The notes under the pieces were generated by a model. That model had not been told where the DNA came from. It did not search any database and worked only from the letters and a program-made list of their open reading frames with translations. Below, piece after piece: positions 3,993-61,773 of a stretch of 64,000 nucleotides of DNA; position 1 is the first letter of the stretch; each line of letters starts with the position of its first letter. Made by a program: the position numbers and the translations under genes. Source of the DNA: a virus (Duplodnaviria > Caudoviricetes); IMG/VR virus record IMGVR_UViG_3300031853_000019, positions 18,749 to 82,748 of that record; one strand, written 5' to 3'.

Positions 3993-4205
3993 ATGTATGA
4001 AAGTTATACAGATTGGAAGTTAAGACAGCCGCCGCATCATGTTAGAGTTATGATTAAGTTTGAAGATGGCGGAAGATATATAGGGTATTCAGATGGTTTT
4101 GGTTATCTCCATCTTGAAACTGGGAAGATTGTTAGTGAAACGGTTTCCCGCCCGCTTGAATGGAAAAAGATTGAAAAAGATGAATGGGGGAACTATGTAT
4201 GGTAA
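3993..4205 (+). CDS. Hypothetical protein
   Basis: 70-aa ORF, GAGGTG RBS. Confidence 0.7.
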   Translation: MYESYTDWKLRQPPHHVRVMIKFEDGGRYIGYSDGFGYLHLETGKIVSETVSRPLEWKKIEKDEWGNYVW

Positions 4206-4444
4206 GCATGATTATCACTTGGGTAGTGTTTTTAATTGGATTTTTGCTCTTGTTTTATCTTGTAAGTAAAGTATATAAGGCGGTATTTGCAAGTGCAGCC
4301 GCAACTGATATTCTTTTTGGCAAGAACAGACAAAAAGTAGAGGAGCTAGAGAATAGAATTAAAGAACTTGAGAAACTACTTGAAAATACAAAAGTAAGTT
4401 GTGATGACTTTTGTAAAACTATATATGATTCTTATGATGAATAA
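4199..4444 (+). CDS. Small membrane protein with coiled-coil tail
   Basis: N-terminal hydrophobic helix (IITWVVFLIGFLLLFYLV) then VEELENRIKELEKLL; start coupled to upstream stop. Confidence 0.7.
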   Translation: MVSMIITWVVFLIGFLLLFYLVSKVYKAVFASAAATDILFGKNRQKVEELENRIKELEKLLENTKVSCDDFCKTIYDSYDE

Positions 4445-4447
4445 TGA

Positions 4448-4474
4448 GAGGGCGCGTTTTTGCGCCCTTTTTAT
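4448..4474 (+). terminator. Intrinsic terminator
   Basis: AGGGCGC-loop-GCGCCCT followed by a T run. Confidence 0.7.
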
Positions 4475-4598
4475 TGCGGGGTAGCTAGATTAAGGGGTAG
4501 GTGAATCGGCTTTCGCGCATTTTTGTTTAATTTATAAGGGGGTATTTTTATATTTTATAGGGGGTATTAAAAATCCACAAAAAGGAGGTGGAATTTAA

Positions 4599-5393
4599 TT
4601 GACATTGCAAGAATTATGTAGGGAGTATAAACTTACGGAAAATACTGTCAAAAAGAATTTTAGTAGAGTTCAAAAAAACTTTTTGGATAAACAAAATCTT
4701 GTTCTTACTAAAACTGGTAGAGGGGAAAATGTTAATTACACTGTTGAACCTAATACTGATGATAGAAGAGCTTCCCGCATGATAGAAGAAGCTAAAACTG
4801 AAATTACTTTATCGCAAAAACAATTTACTGATTTGGTTGATTTTAATTTCATTATATTTTTGGGTATATGTATGACTCCAATGACTACTTTTTATGGTAA
4901 TTATAATCAGTTTTTAGATTATGTAGAGGTTAAGAAAAGTAGTAATAATATAGAATTGTTAAAAGAAGGTTTAAAGTTCCTTGCCGCAGAGGAATATATT
5001 AGATATGATGTAGATAAAACTAATGAAGATTATTTCTGGGCTGGTTTATATTATAAGACAAGATCAGAGATGGCTATTGGGATTGATATGGTGCAAAGAT
5101 GTCAATTAATTGCCGCAAAGAATAAGAAGAAAAGCTGGGTGCCGCTATTAAAGACTTGGTTGGGGATACAATATGTATATGATAAACAGCCTTTTACTAT
5201 GGCGAGATTGAGTGAAGTTACTGGGTTGAGTGTTTATCAGATAAGGGAAAGTAAGAAGTTATTAGAGAAGGATAATTTGTTTATTACATCTAAGGCATAT
5301 ATAGCATATGATAAGTGTATAGGCAGTAATGTAGAGTTAAATGGAATTAATGAAAGTAATAGGAATTTTGTGGAAAATAAGCAACGGACTTAA
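4599..5393 (+). CDS. DNA-binding protein with HTH/winged-helix-like segments; possible replication initiator
   Basis: TTG start after GGAGGTG; N-terminal MTLQELCREYKLTENTV and C-terminal FTMARLSEVTGLSVYQIRESKKLLE HTH-like motifs; function inferred. Confidence 0.55.
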   Translation: MTLQELCREYKLTENTVKKNFSRVQKNFLDKQNLVLTKTGRGENVNYTVEPNTDDRRASRMIEEAKTEITLSQKQFTDLVDFNFIIFLGICMTPMTTFYGNYNQFLDYVEVKKSSNNIELLKEGLKFLAAEEYIRYDVDKTNEDYFWAGLYYKTRSEMAIGIDMVQRCQLIAAKNKKKSWVPLLKTWLGIQYVYDKQPFTMARLSEVTGLSVYQIRESKKLLEKDNLFITSKAYIAYDKCIGSNVELNGINESNRNFVENKQRT

Positions 5394-6130
5394 CCAATAT
5401 ATAAATCTTATTATTGTTCAAGACGGTTGCTTAATTTCCACAGATTTGCTTGATTTTGCAGAGGTGAATTCCACATTTGGGGAATTTCGACAAATTGATG
5501 CAGATATTGGAGATTAATTAGAATTGAGAGTGAATTGGGAGAAATTGGAGATGGGTGGTGACCCGACCTACCACCCTCAACACCTTCTCAACACGGTATA
5601 ACGTCCGTTATCGTCTTCCATAATTCCTCAACTTGAAATTTTAGAAAATTTTTTATATAATATATATATGATAAGTGATTAACAGTTATTGCTTATTATT
5701 TATACTCCAATTCGATGTATTACGATACATAGTTTTGTTTGTCCTTAAAACTAAAAAAAGTAAATTGACCTTTCTTTAGCCTCAGGTAATACACACCTGA
5801 GGTTTTCTTTTTATGTCCGTACCCCGTTGTCCCCTCCGAAGGAGGGGGCAACTTTTTGATTAAAGAGGGTTTCAAGTATAAATATTATCCCATTATATTA
5901 TATAATAATATATTATAAAAATCAAATAACCATTTATGGGAACCATATTATATGCCCGTGCAGGCGGGAATCGCTTGCAAACAACTGGCGGCCAGATCCA
6001 TATTCCATAGGGCGGGCGGTAGCCGCCCGTTCCAAATAACCAGTGCATATAGCCATATAGGTCGGCCTACGGCCTCCCGAGAGGTGAAGAGCGCACTTTA
6101 TTGCGTTAAAGTGTAACACTTTAATGTGTG
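5369..6130. other. Hairpin-rich non-coding region (candidate origin or terminus)
   Basis: Inverted repeats at 5369-5441, 5554-5577, 5779-5806, 5826-5852, 6012-6030 and palindrome TTAAAGTG-TAA-CACTTTAA near 6105-6123, interleaved with AT-rich runs; no ORF with an RBS. Confidence 0.5.
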
Positions 6131-18321: not shown

Positions 18322-18750
18322 TCAACCCCATTTTTCAATTTCTTCTTTTGCGGTTTTAATTGCTTTGTTACATTTAGCAATTTCATCATTCAGTTCATTG
18401 ATCTTTGCTTGTCTTGTTTCTTCCTTCTTATATTTTCTTACTTTGATTTTTTCAATCTCTTCTTTACAAGCCTTGATTTCATTGTTAAGTCTTTCAATGA
18501 AATTCATGTTAAAATCATAGTCACCTTTTGTGTAGACTCTTTCCTTTTCTCCTTCTCCAATGATAACGCGGTTATCTTCATCTACATAGTAGATATTCTC
18601 ACAAATCTCGCTATCACGAGCGCCCTGGTCTAAAAGAAACTTCTTTGCGCTTTCCTTAGTAGCAAAAGTCTTTGTTGTGTATCCACCATGGTCGCAAGTT
18701 ACAAATCTGTCATAATATGTTGCATCAAATACTCTCATCATTTCTTTCAT
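18322..18750 (-). CDS. Hypothetical protein with C-terminal coiled coil
   Basis: 142 aa; own promoter and hairpin leader. Confidence 0.75.
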   Translation of the reverse strand: MKEMMRVFDATYYDRFVTCDHGGYTTKTFATKESAKKFLLDQGARDSEICENIYYVDEDNRVIIGEGEKERVYTKGDYDFNMNFIERLNNEIKACKEEIEKIKVRKYKKEETRQAKINELNDEIAKCNKAIKTAKEEIEKWG

Positions 18751-56853: not shown

Positions 56854-57366
56854 TTATGCCCAATTAAAGGGCTTTGGTTCTGGTACTGAATGAACTTTAG
56901 CATATCCAATACCAATAGCATCTGCAATATCGTCACTTACTGTAATATTAAAATTATCTTTGACGAATTGTATATCTGCTAGTTTTAGAGCTTCTCTTTT
57001 TATTCCCGCACCAGTTTTGATTCCACAGCGGGAACGCCATGTACTTGCGGGAATGAACTCTACTTCTATATTATAATTATAAAACATCAGCACTATCGCT
57101 GCTTGGAGGTAAAATAACGCTTTGAAAGTTTTTTGGTTTGTATGCCATGTTACTTCATTTAGGTTATCGGGGATTATTTGTTCCATGATTACTTGATCGG
57201 GGGTGTATTTTTTATATAATTCTTCTAATTTATCTGTCATGAATTTGATTCTTTTTAATACATCTTTAGAAGAATTCGTAAAAAGGTCATAATGAAGTAA
57301 ATCTGTACCGTCATAAATTGCAATACCAGTAGCTTTAGTGCTTCCATCTATTGCTAATGTTTTCAT
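56854..57366 (-). CDS. RuvC-like Holliday junction resolvase
   Basis: LAIDGSTKATG, VIMEQ, SDDIADAIGIG acidic triad; own sigmaA promoter 57425-57397. Confidence 0.8.
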   Translation of the reverse strand: MKTLAIDGSTKATGIAIYDGTDLLHYDLFTNSSKDVLKRIKFMTDKLEELYKKYTPDQVIMEQIIPDNLNEVTWHTNQKTFKALFYLQAAIVLMFYNYNIEVEFIPASTWRSRCGIKTGAGIKREALKLADIQFVKDNFNITVSDDIADAIGIGYAKVHSVPEPKPFNWA

Positions 57367-57565: not shown

Positions 57566-58021
57566 TTAATTTGTACCAGTTGATCCAAAACCACCACTGC
57601 CGCGCTCAGTCTCGTCTAACTCATCGACTTCCTCAAGTTCAATATCAACATAAGGCTGGACAATAAGCTGTGCGATTCTATCTCCGCGATGCAAGATCTG
57701 AGAGAACTGACTATGATTATGTAGAGCCACGATTATCGGCCCCCTATAATCAGCATCAATAACACCTACTTTATTAGCAGGAGCGAGACCTTGCTTAGTA
57801 GCTAATCCAGATCTAGGATAAATACCACCAAATGTTCCATCAGGTAAAGCAATAGCTATACCAGTGTTAATCTTTACAGTAGTATTAGGTGGAATGTTTA
57901 AAGTCCAATTTTCATTCGTATCAAAATCTTCATAAGTATTAGCATATAAGTCCCATCCGGCAGCAGCCCAACTACCGCGCGTAGGCAGCTTTGCCGCAGG
58001 ATTTAATTTCTTAATTTTCAT
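57566..58021 (-). CDS. dut: dUTP diphosphatase
   Basis: AAGWDL, PRSGLA, GVIDADYRG, RIAQL, RGSGGFGSTG motifs I-V. Confidence 0.97.
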   Translation of the reverse strand: MKIKKLNPAAKLPTRGSWAAAGWDLYANTYEDFDTNENWTLNIPPNTTVKINTGIAIALPDGTFGGIYPRSGLATKQGLAPANKVGVIDADYRGPIIVALHNHSQFSQILHRGDRIAQLIVQPYVDIELEEVDELDETERGSGGFGSTGTN

Positions 58022-58912: not shown

Positions 58913-58996
58913 CTATATTATCTCCTTATATCTTTATATAAATATTATACCAAAAATTTTCAAAAAAATAAAGGGAGGATTTCTCCTCCCTTAAAT

Positions 58997-59995
58997 TTAT
59001 ATAAAGCGCATATGTTTTACGCGCATTTCCGTTTCTTGTATTTTACCTTTATTAAAAGCGGTTAAGTAATCTCCAGTTAGATATCCTGTAACTCTTCTAA
59101 GTCTTTGAATATTCTTACTCTTGCATTGTGGACAATTACAACCTAGCTCAATCTCACCCTGGAACCCGCACTCTAAGCAAGTATCCGCAGGTACATTAAC
59201 TGCAAAATATGGAATGTCTTTTGCCATAGCATAATTTACAATTTCTTCAAGAGCATCAAGATTATCTTTTACTCCAGCATCAAGTTCTACATAAGTTATG
59301 CAACCAGCAGAACTATACCCCGTTAGCTGAGATTCAATATCAATCTTTTCAAAAGGATTAACATTAATCCAAACTGGTACATGAATAGAGTTTGTAAAGA
59401 AATCTTTATCAGATACATTAGGAATTACTCCATATTTATCTTTGAACTTATCCATAGCAGTTTTGCATAAGTTTTCAGCAGGTGTATAGTAAACGCCAAA
59501 GTTTAACTTATATTCCTCTTTAAACTGAGCGCATCTTTCTTTAAATAAATGTTCAATTCTCTTAGCAAGCTTCATGCCTTCTTCTGTTGTATGGTCACAG
59601 CCAATAAGGATTTGAAGTGTTTCCGCAAGACCAATTTGTCCAATAGCTAGAGTACCATGTTTTAGTGCAGAAATAATACCTTCATCAGGATTATATCCTC
59701 GCATTGTTCCGTTCTCATACATGAATTTTGCAGAACCTGGATCTTGAGAACAAATGTATTCAAAACGCTCAATTAGCATATCTTTGGCTTCATGGATTTT
59801 TTGATCGAGTAAATCTAAAAATGTTTCTACTACATATTCCTCTGCATCTTCATATTCTCTACGAGGTTTTAATACAGCTTCCATAGCTAATGTAGGCATA
59901 ATAATAGTTACAGGACAGATATTACCTCTACCATCTTTCTTCTGCGGATTTACCCCAGGTTCTGCATTTATATCAGCTCCGTTAGCTGTTCTACA
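58997..59995 (-). CDS. nrdD: Anaerobic ribonucleoside-triphosphate reductase, exon 2
   Basis: Begins with the catalytic CRT; YYTPAE; CxxC..CxxC; glycyl-radical RRVTGYL. Confidence 0.93.
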   Translation of the reverse strand, partial: CRTANGADINAEPGVNPQKKDGRGNICPVTIIMPTLAMEAVLKPRREYEDAEEYVVETFLDLLDQKIHEAKDMLIERFEYICSQDPGSAKFMYENGTMRGYNPDEGIISALKHGTLAIGQIGLAETLQILIGCDHTTEEGMKLAKRIEHLFKERCAQFKEEYKLNFGVYYTPAENLCKTAMDKFKDKYGVIPNVSDKDFFTNSIHVPVWINVNPFEKIDIESQLTGYSSAGCITYVELDAGVKDNLDALEEIVNYAMAKDIPYFAVNVPADTCLECGFQGEIELGCNCPQCKSKNIQRLRRVTGYLTGDYLTAFNKGKIQETEMRVKHMRFI

Positions 59996-60516
59996 CATGT
60001 TATCTAATGTTACCATTAGCACTGACTATATCTTCTATCTTTAATTAAGATAGCCTTCCGCTTCGACTTGGTGCCTATCTCCAAGTCTACTCCCTTACAT
60101 TCATCAGGGATAGTCGATACACTTTAATTTATTGGAGCATACTTTTGGGGAAATATTACATGACTGTGTAACTGTTTTATTTCTTCTTTTGGAACTTCGT
60201 ATATCTTAATTGTACAGTCTTGTAAGTATAACTCACGATTTTTTTGTTTATTCCAATATTCAATTAAAGATTCCAATGATAAACATCCAGACAACATATC
60301 ATCGTCAAAATGGATGCTATTATCAGAACGAAGAGATCCATTTTTTGTGAAAAAAGGACCGCCTCCATCTTTATTTTCATATCTATAAATAAGCATATTC
60401 CTCTCCAATATATTCTTAGCACGGTCTCATCCATTTTAGGACCTAACCGTTAGCCACATTAAGTGACACCCGCGGGCGCGGTTCAAAAGGTTTTACATGA
60501 GCTGTAGTTTACACTT
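59996..60516 (-). mobile_element. Group I intron (521 nt) in nrdD
   Basis: 5' exon ends in U, intron ends in G; P1 CAUGGGU/GCUCAUG with U-G at splice site; P10 CUACA/UGUAG; P7 GACUA/UAGUC with S element AAGAUAUAGUC; splicing restores STMG-CRTA. Confidence 0.92.
60124..60396 (-). CDS. Intron-encoded 90-aa protein, not a recognisable homing endonuclease
   Basis: GGAGAGGA RBS, ATG at 60396, lies between the Q element and R (P6 loop); no GIY-YIG, HNH or LAGLIDADG motif. Confidence 0.75.
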   Translation of the reverse strand: MLIYRYENKDGGGPFFTKNGSLRSDNSIHFDDDMLSGCLSLESLIEYWNKQKNRELYLQDCTIKIYEVPKEEIKQLHSHVIFPQKYAPIN

Positions 60517-61773
60517 ACCCATGGTTGAAAAGTATGTCTCTGGGTCGTTACGGTCGTAGCCTGCATTCCCGCTCCAATCAACATTTGCATAATTAGGATA
60601 TAATCTTTTAGCTGTTGACTCAAGTGCTAATCTATATAAATCATAGTTAGGAGTTCCAGGCTTGTCATTTACTCCCTTCATATATTGGAAAATACCACAA
60701 GGGAATATACTTGTTTTATGCAGTTTGCCTACTCCTTTAATACATCCTTTAAGGAGAGCTTCTGTTACCATTCTTCCCTCGGGCAAAGTACATGTACCAT
60801 AGTTGATCGAGGTAAAAGGCAACTGGTTTCCAGACCTTGATTGTAATGTATTGAGATTATGATACATACCCTCAACTGCTTGTTGAGTTTCTTTAATGGT
60901 CATGTCCATAGCATACTTGTATGCTTTGTCATCATCATAAGCTTTTCTGTCTGCAATAGATATATTGGGCGCTACTGGTTCTCCAATTATGTGAGCATCC
61001 CAATCTTCATCTTCTGATATATAAATCAAACCATTTTTATAATGCTTCCAAAAACTCTTTCTCACATAGGGAACCATAGTCCAATCTAAGTGTGAAGCTG
61101 AAACGCCTCCAAACTGCTGAAGTGACTGCAACTGAAAGATAACTGCAACAAGTTGGAAAGCTGTATTTATGCTATTAGCAGGACGAACATCGGTTTGCCT
61201 TGTATTAAATCCATTTTTAAGTAAGTCGTCAAAAGGAATCGTCAAACAATTGTGCATGCCAACTGCATAGCTATCTAAATCATGAATGTAAATTTCATTA
61301 TTAACATGATTATCTCTAGACTTTTTACTCATACAATGATCTAAAGCAAAACTCTTCATCACAACAGAATCTGCTTCACCTTTCCGCCCACCAAAGCTTA
61401 ATTCATCAACATTCGCATTTTGCTTTTGAATATCATTTGCAAATAATTTACTTCTTACTTGTTGCATTAGGGATGAGTTAAACTGACGCCTTTTATTTCT
61501 TTCTTCTCGATAAAGAATATAAGCTCTAGCTACATCTTTTCTTTTAGTAGCCATCAGCCCTTTCTCAACCATGTCCTGAATTTCTTCAACAGTATATGGT
61601 TCTTCTGTTTCTATTGCTGCTTCTTCAATAAAGTCTGCAATCTTTTTTGATTTTTCTTCTGCATATTCAGTTATATCTTTATCAACTGCAGCAAATGCTC
61701 GAAGCACTGCTTCTTCAATTTTATCTCTGTTAAAAACTACTTCGCGCCCATCACGCTTAATAATTTTTTCCAT
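60517..61773 (-). CDS. nrdD: Anaerobic ribonucleoside-triphosphate reductase, exon 1
   Basis: N-terminal ATP cone (IIKRDGR), IYIHDLD, QQFGG, LQSRSGNQLPFTSINYG; spliced product about 751 aa. Confidence 0.93.

Follow-up and report, generated by a model that had tools for sequence, protein, structure and literature searches.

A group I intron in a phage nrdD gene carries a MotB.2/Y00F-family gene in the loop that houses homing endonuclease genes in its sister introns

Introduction

Genes that do not encode homing endonucleases can reside in the peripheral loops of self-splicing introns. Examples are rps3 in the rnl intron of fungal mitochondria, ND1 and ND3 in the ND5 intron of hexacorals, and the clostridial IStrons. 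Group I introns with cargo of this kind have been described in organelles and IStrons (PMC8146996; bioRxiv 10.1101/2023.11.20.567912). In phages, introns in nrdD are common and prefer conserved, functionally critical codons (PMC3653736, PMC12880540, PMC2988022); our literature searches turned up no phage intron reported to house an accessory or effector-type gene. Here we analyze a 521-nucleotide (nt) group I intron in nrdD, the gene of the anaerobic ribonucleotide reductase, of a Caudoviricetes phage. The intron lies in a 64,000-nt stretch of DNA (positions 18,749 to 82,748 of IMG/VR record IMGVR_UViG_3300031853_000019; hereafter the window) and carries a 90-amino-acid (aa) open reading frame (ORF) of the MotB.2/Y00F family in the loop closed by helix P6a. 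It resembles the rnl/rps3, ND5 and IStron introns in that a peripheral loop houses a gene other than that of a homing endonuclease, and differs from them in its kind of cargo, which in those introns is an organellar housekeeping gene or a transposase.

The intron of the window can be compared with the IA2 intron of T4 nrdD (sunY). The host gene is nrdD in both cases. An identical 30-nt P7/P7.1 segment is shared, the elements GAAGAUAUAGUC and GAAGATATAGTC are found in both ribozymes, and the internal-guide/J1-3 sequence GCUCAUGUAAAAUCU is common to both. Both introns are without P2 and possess P7.1 and P7.2. The common sequence segments indicate that the intron family of the window is homologous to the classical IA2 intron. 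The T4 insertion site, however, corresponds to about positions 133-141 of the NRDD profile, whereas that of the window is Gly|Cys290. In addition, the T4 ORF, I-TevII, is a GIY-YIG endonuclease encoded in the 3' part of the intron and not in P6a, and two hairpins between P3 and P4 occur only in the window family.

As an overall explanation, we favor at a probability of roughly 0.6 that the window contains a functional IA2 nrdD intron in which the endonuclease gene has been replaced by an accessory gene for a protein resembling ADP-ribosyltransferases (ARTs), and that this intron is still spreading.

Results

In the window, nrdD is encoded on the minus strand, as are all the intron features given below, and is interrupted by the intron (60516..59996) between a Gly and a Cys codon. 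Exon 1 (60517..61773) encodes the N-terminal half of the enzyme, with an ATP-cone and positions 2-268 of the Pfam NRDD profile, and ends ...F-S-T-M-G (codons TTT TCA ACC ATG GGT, the last base, at 60517, being U). Exon 2 (58997..59995) starts C-R-T-A-N-G (TGT AGA ACA GCT, from 59995) and encodes NRDD positions 264-562 and Gly_radical, with the glycyl-radical domain and a zinc ribbon. The NRDD profile is divided cleanly at the intron, which is preceded by U and ends with G (59996). A previous reading of this DNA from its letters alone (hereafter the sequence-only reading) had placed the intron exactly between the Gly codon and the codon of the catalytic Cys (STMG|CRTA). This placement agrees with a BLASTP alignment with T4 NrdD, in which the junction is aligned with SPMG-C290-RSF and the first residue of exon 2 is the equivalent of Cys290, which is the radical-site cysteine of class III reductases. 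Without splicing, the frame of exon 1 (uninterrupted from 61773 to 60493) encounters a stop seven codons into the intron. Full-length NrdD would therefore require splicing.

The helices of the intron are arranged in the order P1, P3, two hairpins, P4/P5, P6/P6a with the insert, P7, P7.1, P7.2, P3', P8, P7', P9 and the terminal G, which is the layout of subgroup IA2. P1 is formed between the exon strand (60517-60523) and the internal guide (60496-60502) as CAUGGGU/GCUCAUG, with a U.G pair at the splice site, and the P10 guide (60503-60507) provides the pairing CUACA/UGUAG. The 5' strand of P3 (CCUUUUG, 60484..60490) pairs with 60054-60060. Next come the extra hairpins A (60470-60481) and B (60453-60467), and then P4 (ACGGUU/GACCGU) around a variable P5 hairpin (60421..60450), where J4/5 and J5/4 are invariant. 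The 5' strands of P6 and P6a (60400..60419) overlap the Shine-Dalgarno sequence of the ORF (GGAGAGG, 60400-60406). The 3' half of the core (60024..60115) consists of the P7 5' strand (60111-60115), P7.1 (60092-60109), P7.2 (60065-60087), the P3 3' strand (60054-60060), P8 (60035-60053) and the P7 3' strand (60024-60028), P7 itself being the pairing GACUA/UAGUC. The P9 hairpin (60004-60019) and the terminal G complete the intron.

For the analysis of covariation, the variable insert was removed, 41 distinct copies of the intron were aligned, and pairs were counted against a hand-drawn structure. P1 was 99% canonical with an invariant U.G at the splice site, and the third base of the Thr codon covaried with the last base of the guide (C-G, G-C or A-U in 39 of the 41 copies). 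In P10, UGUAG/CUACA alternated with UGCAG/CUGCA. The core helices as a whole (P3-P9) showed canonical pairing of 95-100%. P3 was 100% canonical with two compensatory positions, and compensatory pairs numbered one in P4, two in P5, two in P6, ten in P6a (every pair), four in P7.2, six in P8 and four in P9, with three and four in the extra hairpins A and B, respectively. The invariance of P7 and P7.1 among the copies is partly a product of the search pattern, which covered that segment. Given this covariation over 41 distinct homologous introns, a chance origin of the intron structure is untenable. P1, P7, P10 and the terminal omega-G, which the sequence-only reading had described as intact, are all present, and P1 and P10 have the support of covariation. 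The segment AGACU (60083-60087) was considered as the 5' strand of P7 and rejected, since covariation makes it the 5' strand of P7.2, the real P7 strand being GACUA at 60111-60115.

Two further points concern the structure. A conserved GUGU between the extra hairpins (60468-60469 region) is complementary to G-[CU]-A-C in the loop of P7.2 (60071-60079). As judged by eye in the alignment of 41 copies, this pairing stays possible in most of them with the loop variants GCAC, GUAC, AUAC and ACAC; one copy (L107), in which GUGU is changed to GUAU, is an apparent exception. The two segments may form a tertiary loop contact. Separately, the Rfam model RF00028 gave a sub-threshold match at window positions 60003-60169, and automated counts of phage introns would under-report this abundant intron family.

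An exact search showed that the 28-nt core piece of the window intron containing P7 and P7.1 is carried by 74 IMG/VR loci. In nearly all of these loci the flanks read ...[ST]-T-M-G | C-R-[TS]..., that is, the same nrdD site. At one locus (L096, IMG/VR 3300028048_000001) the core copy, around 5929-5956, lies at another nrdD site, with the 3' exon G-V-S-A-T-H-L-D-W-T-M-V-P-F-V-R-K-S. This copy indicates that the intron family has colonized at least two sites in nrdD. The nrdD genes of two large phages contain several insertions (L027:1258-3396 and L022:1704-5441). The upstream intron of L027 has an intact GIY-YIG+NUMOD gene (1641-2345) between the exon pieces ...HQAVEGLYHNL and MITKAMLEV..., and L022 has an additional ORF of 234 aa (4185-4889) between nrdD pieces.

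The passengers of the P6a loop were classified by the distance from P4 to P7 in the 61 loci in which both halves of the intron were found. Inserts of 27-87 nt (7 loci) were without an ORF. Inserts of about 535-900 nt mostly encoded a protein starting M-x-I-Y-K-I-T-N...Y-I-G-Q, either intact (174-282 aa) or fragmented, in which Pfam recognizes GIY-YIG and NUMOD modules; in three loci of this size range the passenger was an HNH protein (HNH_3 with a NUMOD-like domain). Inserts of about 280-300 nt contained a Y00F-like ORF in L037 and L042 (the IMG/VR copies of the L022 and L027 regions) or an ORF of 59 aa in L077. The statement of the sequence-only reading that the P6 loop is the usual location of endonuclease genes is true for the sister introns, where GIY-YIG or HNH genes are found in P6a. 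That reading had also proposed a survey of homologous nrdD introns for exchange of cargo, and in our survey the same loop held a GIY-YIG gene, an HNH gene, no ORF or a Y00F-like ORF. The insertion site, the ribozyme and the passenger loop are thus common to the window intron and its sisters with I-TevI-like GIY-YIG+NUMOD or HNH genes. The passenger of the window, in contrast, is a 90-aa MotB.2/Y00F-family protein without a detectable relation to GIY-YIG or a DNA-binding module.

The 59-aa ORF starts M-R-G-Y-K-L-T, has no Pfam match, and is found in the P6a loop at L077:1944-2123 (minus strand), L046:2773-2952 and L058:7853-8032. It is the sole passenger in L077 (282-nt insert), and in L046 and L058 a decayed GIY-YIG gene lies downstream of it. 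It may represent a second type of small passenger other than an endonuclease gene, if it is not simply a leftover.

The cargo ORF (60396..60124, 90 aa and a stop) is intact, and its Shine-Dalgarno sequence GGAGAGG is located three bases upstream of the ATG. The report of an intact 90-aa ORF with its own ribosome-binding site in the P6 loop was accurate in these respects, the loop being closed by P6a. The last codons of the ORF (P-I-N-stop, 60126-60135) form the 3' strand of P6a, and the 5' strand of P6a overlaps the Shine-Dalgarno region. No promoter-like site was found within the intron.

In PHROGs, residues 1-87 of the cargo ORF matched phrog_1106 (function not annotated) with an expectation value (E) of 2.8e-10, and the profile of phrog_1106 matches T4 motB.2 at E 1.6e-57. 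A precomputed annotation gave a weak match to PF26820, Phage_T4_Y00F. An exhaustive phmmer search identified 70 relatives, mostly of 80-115 aa. The family alignment contains 58 members, a subset of 12 of which was used to search for related loci. In this alignment R5, E7, D10, G11-G13, P14, G20, R23, G37, C38, S40, L44, Y66, F82 and P83 are nearly invariant. The cargo protein and T4 MotB.2 (UniProt Y00F_BPT4; PF26820; phrog_1106) belong to the same PHROG family, are both small early-region phage proteins, and show BLASTP similarity over the C-terminal 46 residues (E 9e-5). The T4 protein, however, has 166 aa and is free-standing, whereas that of the window is a minimal, intron-borne version. 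We found no literature on the function of motB.2 or PF26820, or linking motB.2 with ADP-ribosyltransferase. Profile searches of Pfam (E up to 10), NCBIfam and PADLOC with the cargo ORF gave no useful match, tblastn of the ORF against 50,697 phage records gave none, and blastn of the intron against phage records gave only short matches to nrdD exons. No fused or longer forms of the family were found among longer proteins, which is weak evidence.

The N-terminus of the cargo protein is similar to those of the GIY-YIG passengers (M-x-I-Y-[KR]), which raised the possibility that the ORF is a degenerate GIY-YIG gene. This possibility was rejected on two grounds: hhalign against 13 sister GIY-YIG proteins gave a probability of 0.4%, and free-standing relatives of the cargo protein have the identical N-terminus. 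No GIY-YIG domain (PF01541) was detected in the ORF by Pfam at E up to 10. No GIY-YIG structure was among the listed fold matches of the model described below, although absence from these lists is no proof against such a fold. In agreement with the sequence-only reading, the ORF is not a remnant of a homing endonuclease gene; its relatives are mostly free-standing, at about 55 other loci. The ratio of nonsynonymous to synonymous substitution rates (dN/dS) between intron-borne copies was 0.22 for the window against L006 (few changes), 0.27 for L022 against L027, and 0.34 for the window against L014. These values indicate that the cargo ORF is under purifying selection.

The structure of the cargo protein was predicted by AlphaFold with the 58-sequence alignment, giving a predicted local distance difference test (pLDDT) score of 96.5 and a predicted template modelling (pTM) score of 0.85. 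A model from the single sequence (pLDDT 51) was discarded. VIA-align searched 48,161 representative chains, for which Z values below 8 are common according to the warning of the tool. The leading rows were BC2332 (function not known; Z 5.4), VPA0770 (4.8), Xre-RES (4.7), ParT (4.6), MbcT (4.3) and CC0527 (4.2), and further rows included Tpt1, TreTu, PltA, pertussis S1, Arr, diphtheria toxin, Tne2, scabin, DarT, AcrIF11 and PARPs. About 40 of the best 50 rows were ART-superfamily proteins, with matches spanning residues 1-90 and Z of only 2.2-5.4. The top rows of Foldseek against the PDB, weak at E 0.13 or above, were the A chains of heat-labile enterotoxin and cholera toxin, TreTu, Tpt1, VPA0770 and Xre-RES, and most rows of this search were likewise ART-superfamily proteins. 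The ESM Atlas model of the cargo protein matched a RES-domain cluster with a template modelling (TM) score of 0.60; the RES domain (PF08808) itself gave no profile match in Pfam, the similarity being structural only (Z 4.3-4.8 to VPA0770, Xre-RES, ParT and MbcT). No single score is convincing, but the dominance of one fold in both structural lists would not be attributable to chance. As judged from the model, the cargo protein looks like a minimal ART-like domain.

The positions of several conserved residues can be compared with those of ARTs. R5 is present in all 54 sequences having that column and lies on the first strand in a Y-R-Y context, comparable with L-Y-R-A-D of cholera toxin. This Arg would correspond to motif I of the R-S-E clade, and the G-C-x-S segment that precedes the first helix to motif II. 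The guess of the sequence-only reading that the ORF encodes an R-S-E-clade ART fold finds support at the level of the fold, where about 40 of the 50 nearest structures are ART-superfamily proteins; it is not borne out by any sequence profile, and the third motif does not fit. The small ART-fold toxins and phage effectors (MbcT, ParT and Xre-RES; AcrIF11; T4 Alt, ModA and ModB) are the nearest structural neighbors, with 78-82 of the 90 residues aligned and a root-mean-square deviation of 3.0-3.6 Å, and appear to share with the cargo protein the strand-1 Arg in a YRY context and the Gly-Cys-x-Ser segment entering a helix. The cargo protein differs from them in being about half their size and in having no sequence-profile match, invariant catalytic Glu or antitoxin-like partner.

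Six intron-borne copies of the family gene were identified (the window, L006, L007, L014, L022 and L027), all at the same nrdD site in the same intron family. The ORF is intact in all six, and protein identity to the window ORF is 98% for L006 and L007, 56% for L014 and about 45% for L022 and L027. The gene is free-standing in 16 of 18 IMG/VR loci, in 41 of 41 metagenome loci, and in the contigs of P0002, P0003, P0005 and P0007. The contigs of P0008 and P0012 showed no downstream intron core and are too short to judge further. In five loci (L002-L005 and L015) the free-standing copies are translated correctly only when TAG is read as Gln, with two in-frame TAG positions in L002. These are therefore stop-codon-recoded phages.

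The gene follows nrdG directly or nearly directly in at least 11 loci (L017, L024, L034, L110, L114, L130, L134-L136, L138 and L152), lies between gyrB-like and gyrA-like topoisomerase genes in at least nine, and recurs after a xanthine/uracil permease gene. The position directly between the gyrB-like and gyrA-like genes is found in one clade of large phages (L020, L021, L031, L119, L120, L125, L137 and L145). The split topoisomerase genes of T4, 39 and 60, are separated by mobA, an HNH remnant, and 60.1. In a related phage (L110), nrdD is uninterrupted, with the intron-less site ATGGGA|TGTCGC, and is followed by two small genes, nrdG, a gene for 121 aa and a free-standing copy of the family gene; further on come three small genes, followed by those for dUTPase and RuvC. 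In the window, a terminator-like hairpin (58971..58992, minus strand) lies downstream of nrdD, and dUTPase (57566-58021) and a RuvC-like ORF (56854-57366; RuvC was assigned by eye) follow. The simplest history from these gene orders would be that a gene resident in the nrdDG module was transferred over a short distance to the intron loop, where it took the place of the endonuclease gene.

It is worth noting that the same gene orders allow another interpretation. The protein could be an accessory of the anaerobic ribonucleotide reductase or of nucleotide supply that regulates or modifies NrdD/NrdG or a host enzyme, its location in nrdD reflecting coupling and co-expression. The gene is inside nrdD in six loci and close behind nrdG in the 11 or more mentioned above, and it also adjoins genes for xanthine/uracil permease, nucleoside deoxyribosyltransferase and dUTPase. 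Moreover, among its structural neighbors ParT, a RES-type ART, targets Prs, an enzyme of nucleotide synthesis. Many copies, however, have other locations, either amid small early genes or flanked by topoisomerase subunit genes, and T4 motB.2 is not near nrdDG. Neighborhood in the early regions of phages is in any case weak evidence of a physical or functional link. We consider this interpretation unlikely, and prefer the replacement of an endonuclease gene by a resident accessory gene.

The history of the introns can be followed in their ribozyme cores. The core of the window is 88% identical to that of a GIY-YIG-bearing intron (L090) and only 73-75% identical to those of the L022 and L027 introns, whose closest cores are those of other GIY-YIG-bearing introns. 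In the core tree, which has limited resolution (about 200 columns), the two lineages of Y00F-bearing introns are not sisters. Even so, at least two exchanges of cargo at P6a are needed.

Comparison of closely related cargo-bearing introns showed that the introns are more similar than the genes in which they reside. Between the window and L006/L007, the identity of the introns is 97-100% once the P5 hairpin, which has been replaced, and the Shine-Dalgarno region are set aside. In exon 1 it is 75-85% over the final 120 nt, where a run of synonymous differences reaches to within 9 nt of the splice site, and in exon 2 it drops to 67-83% beyond about 80 nt. The P5 hairpin of the window (60430-60441) has another hairpin in its place in L006/L007 (UCC...GGA versus ACUC...GAGU). 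The introns of L022 and L027 are 88-100% identical in 40-nt windows, whereas identity in the nrdD DNA around them is no more than 30-55%. The NrdD proteins of these two phages show 28-30% (L022) and 55-79% (L027) identity to the window enzyme, their exons 2 start C-R-S-F-L-T-P and C-R-T-S-N-G, respectively, and the P1 loop is remodelled. Near-identical introns in diverged nrdD genes are the classical signature of horizontal transfer, seen here by sequence comparison in introns without an endonuclease gene. The IMG/VR sample from which L022 and L027 derive (3300045988) also contains sister introns, at least four of them with an intact GIY-YIG gene (L053, L076, L079 and the upstream intron of L027). 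Mobilization in trans, or plain recombination between co-infecting phages, would be an economical explanation of the movement.

Alternatively, the Y00F-like protein itself might be a new mobility or competition factor that replaces the homing endonuclease and acts on the intron-less nrdD site, by modifying or nicking it or stalling replication there, or on the recombination machinery. In two lineages of a mobile intron that are not sisters, the ORF occupies the P6a loop, which is the niche of the endonuclease, and the recent transfer described above concerns introns that carry this ORF and no endonuclease gene. Elsewhere, too, the family gene is located among conserved essential genes, either between the gyrB-like and gyrA-like pair or immediately behind nrdG. 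Some enzymes of the ART fold (the DarT, pierisin and scabin types) modify DNA, and such proteins are among the VIA-align matches. On the other hand, the protein has only 90 residues and no recognizable DNA-binding module, whereas the sister endonucleases have NUMOD. All 41 metagenome loci are outside introns, the free-standing copies are syntenic across many diverged phages, suggesting vertical inheritance, and the GIY-YIG sister introns in sample 3300045988 could supply homing in trans. Such a role seems distinctly unlikely to us. A broader form of it is more doubtful still, namely that the minimal ART-like proteins of the MotB.2/Y00F family form a new selfish or competition class that biases inheritance toward its own allele through modification, at or near the nrdD site without intron, of DNA or of a protein involved in repair or replication; if true, it would explain at least two entries into the endonuclease loop and the continued jumping between nrdD genes with flanks of 30-55% identity.

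Finally, it is very unlikely that the ORF is an untranslated neutral hitch-hiker or decaying remnant, or a maturase-like helper of splicing: translation could be blocked by the P6a stem, with which the Shine-Dalgarno sequence and the start of the ORF overlap, and endonuclease genes are decayed in many sister introns, but the six intron-borne copies are all intact with dN/dS of 0.22-0.34, the motifs are strongly conserved and the fold is confidently predicted, most homologues are in genomes where the gene is not intron-borne, which speaks against a maturase, and the existence of ORF-less sister introns argues that the ribozyme needs no protein encoded in the P6a loop.

Discussion

The favored explanation, the replacement of the endonuclease gene of a functional intron by an ART-like accessory gene, can be put together as follows. 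A self-splicing IA2 intron related to that of T4 nrdD/sunY would have been inserted before the radical-cysteine codon of the nrdD gene of a rumen phage. The normal P6a passenger of this mobile intron family would be an I-TevI-like GIY-YIG homing endonuclease gene, which in the window lineage was probably replaced by a resident accessory gene of the MotB.2/Y00F family. The donor would be a gene that is free-standing just downstream of nrdD-nrdG in related phages. P6a appears to have been rebuilt around the cargo, with the last codons of the gene as one strand and its ribosome-binding region overlapping the other. Having no promoter of its own, the ORF would share the transcript of nrdD, and its Shine-Dalgarno sequence would direct translation on the precursor or on the intron after excision.

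The product would be a minimal ART-like domain with the conserved polar set R5, E7, D10, the GGGP loop, R23, S40 and Y66. It most likely binds or uses nicotinamide adenine dinucleotide (NAD+) or a related nucleotide, as a factor of host takeover, counter-defense or nucleotide metabolism, and would be dispensable for splicing and homing. The effector or anti-defense role raised by the sequence-only reading is likewise putative. The intron itself would spread between nrdD alleles by recombination, probably with trans-acting help from GIY-YIG enzymes that are encoded by sister introns and target the same site in co-infecting phages.

Several facts weigh against this explanation. Splicing and translation are predictions from the sequence. 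Rfam gave no match at the gathering score, and a permissive scan reached only 21.4 bits against 50 with RF00028 (E 0.005), in the 3' half of the intron. This shortfall is a weakness of the model, which handles the P6a insert and the IA2 peripheral elements poorly, and is no argument against the intron. No GIY-YIG gene was found in the available 82.7 kilobases of the window phage (61% complete), so a trans-acting helper would come from another phage. With regard to the fold, Foldseek against the PDB gave no match at E 0.001 or better (best E 0.13), the absolute similarity in VIA-align is weak (best Z 5.4), a profile search of the sequences of solved structures gave chance-level matches only, and none of the Pfam, NCBIfam, PADLOC and PDB sequence profiles ties the family to any ART. 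The sequence-only reading had suspected that a catalytic Glu is not evident, and indeed no invariant acidic residue corresponding to the catalytic Glu (ExE/QxE) is present on the C-terminal strands in the 58-sequence alignment. Position 67 is D in 20, E in 19 and N in 9 of the 58 sequences (67% Asp/Glu), and position 79 is E in 22, H in 15 and Q in 13. Since the position of the catalytic Glu is variable, a purely ligand-binding or unrelated role is as likely as catalysis, and since no catalytic Glu is invariant we do not file the family as an ADP-ribosyltransferase. The model would be compatible with a protein that uses NAD+ with an unusual catalytic set, and equally the protein may only bind a nucleotide-like ligand.

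Beyond what had been read from the window alone, the loci compared here indicate that the intron family is widespread and kin to the T4 sunY intron, and that its cargo-bearing members are still horizontally mobile. A phage group I intron with a conserved accessory gene in the endonuclease slot, its cargo acquired repeatedly, is apparently new. The same apparently applies to the continued horizontal transfer of a composite of endonuclease-less intron and cargo, and to the predicted ART-like fold of the MotB.2/Y00F family. The 41 distinct covarying copies at a single site, with cargo that is intact, decayed, absent or replaced, are a suitable basis for work on the mobile-intron life cycle and on mobilization in trans. 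For T4 MotB.2, a 'hypothetical' protein of the best-studied phage, the predicted fold is a first structural lead, from which biochemistry and the search for a target gain a specific hypothesis. Group I introns of phages are usually viewed as parasites composed of a ribozyme and an endonuclease; the intron of the window would be a vehicle and expression site for another kind of gene.

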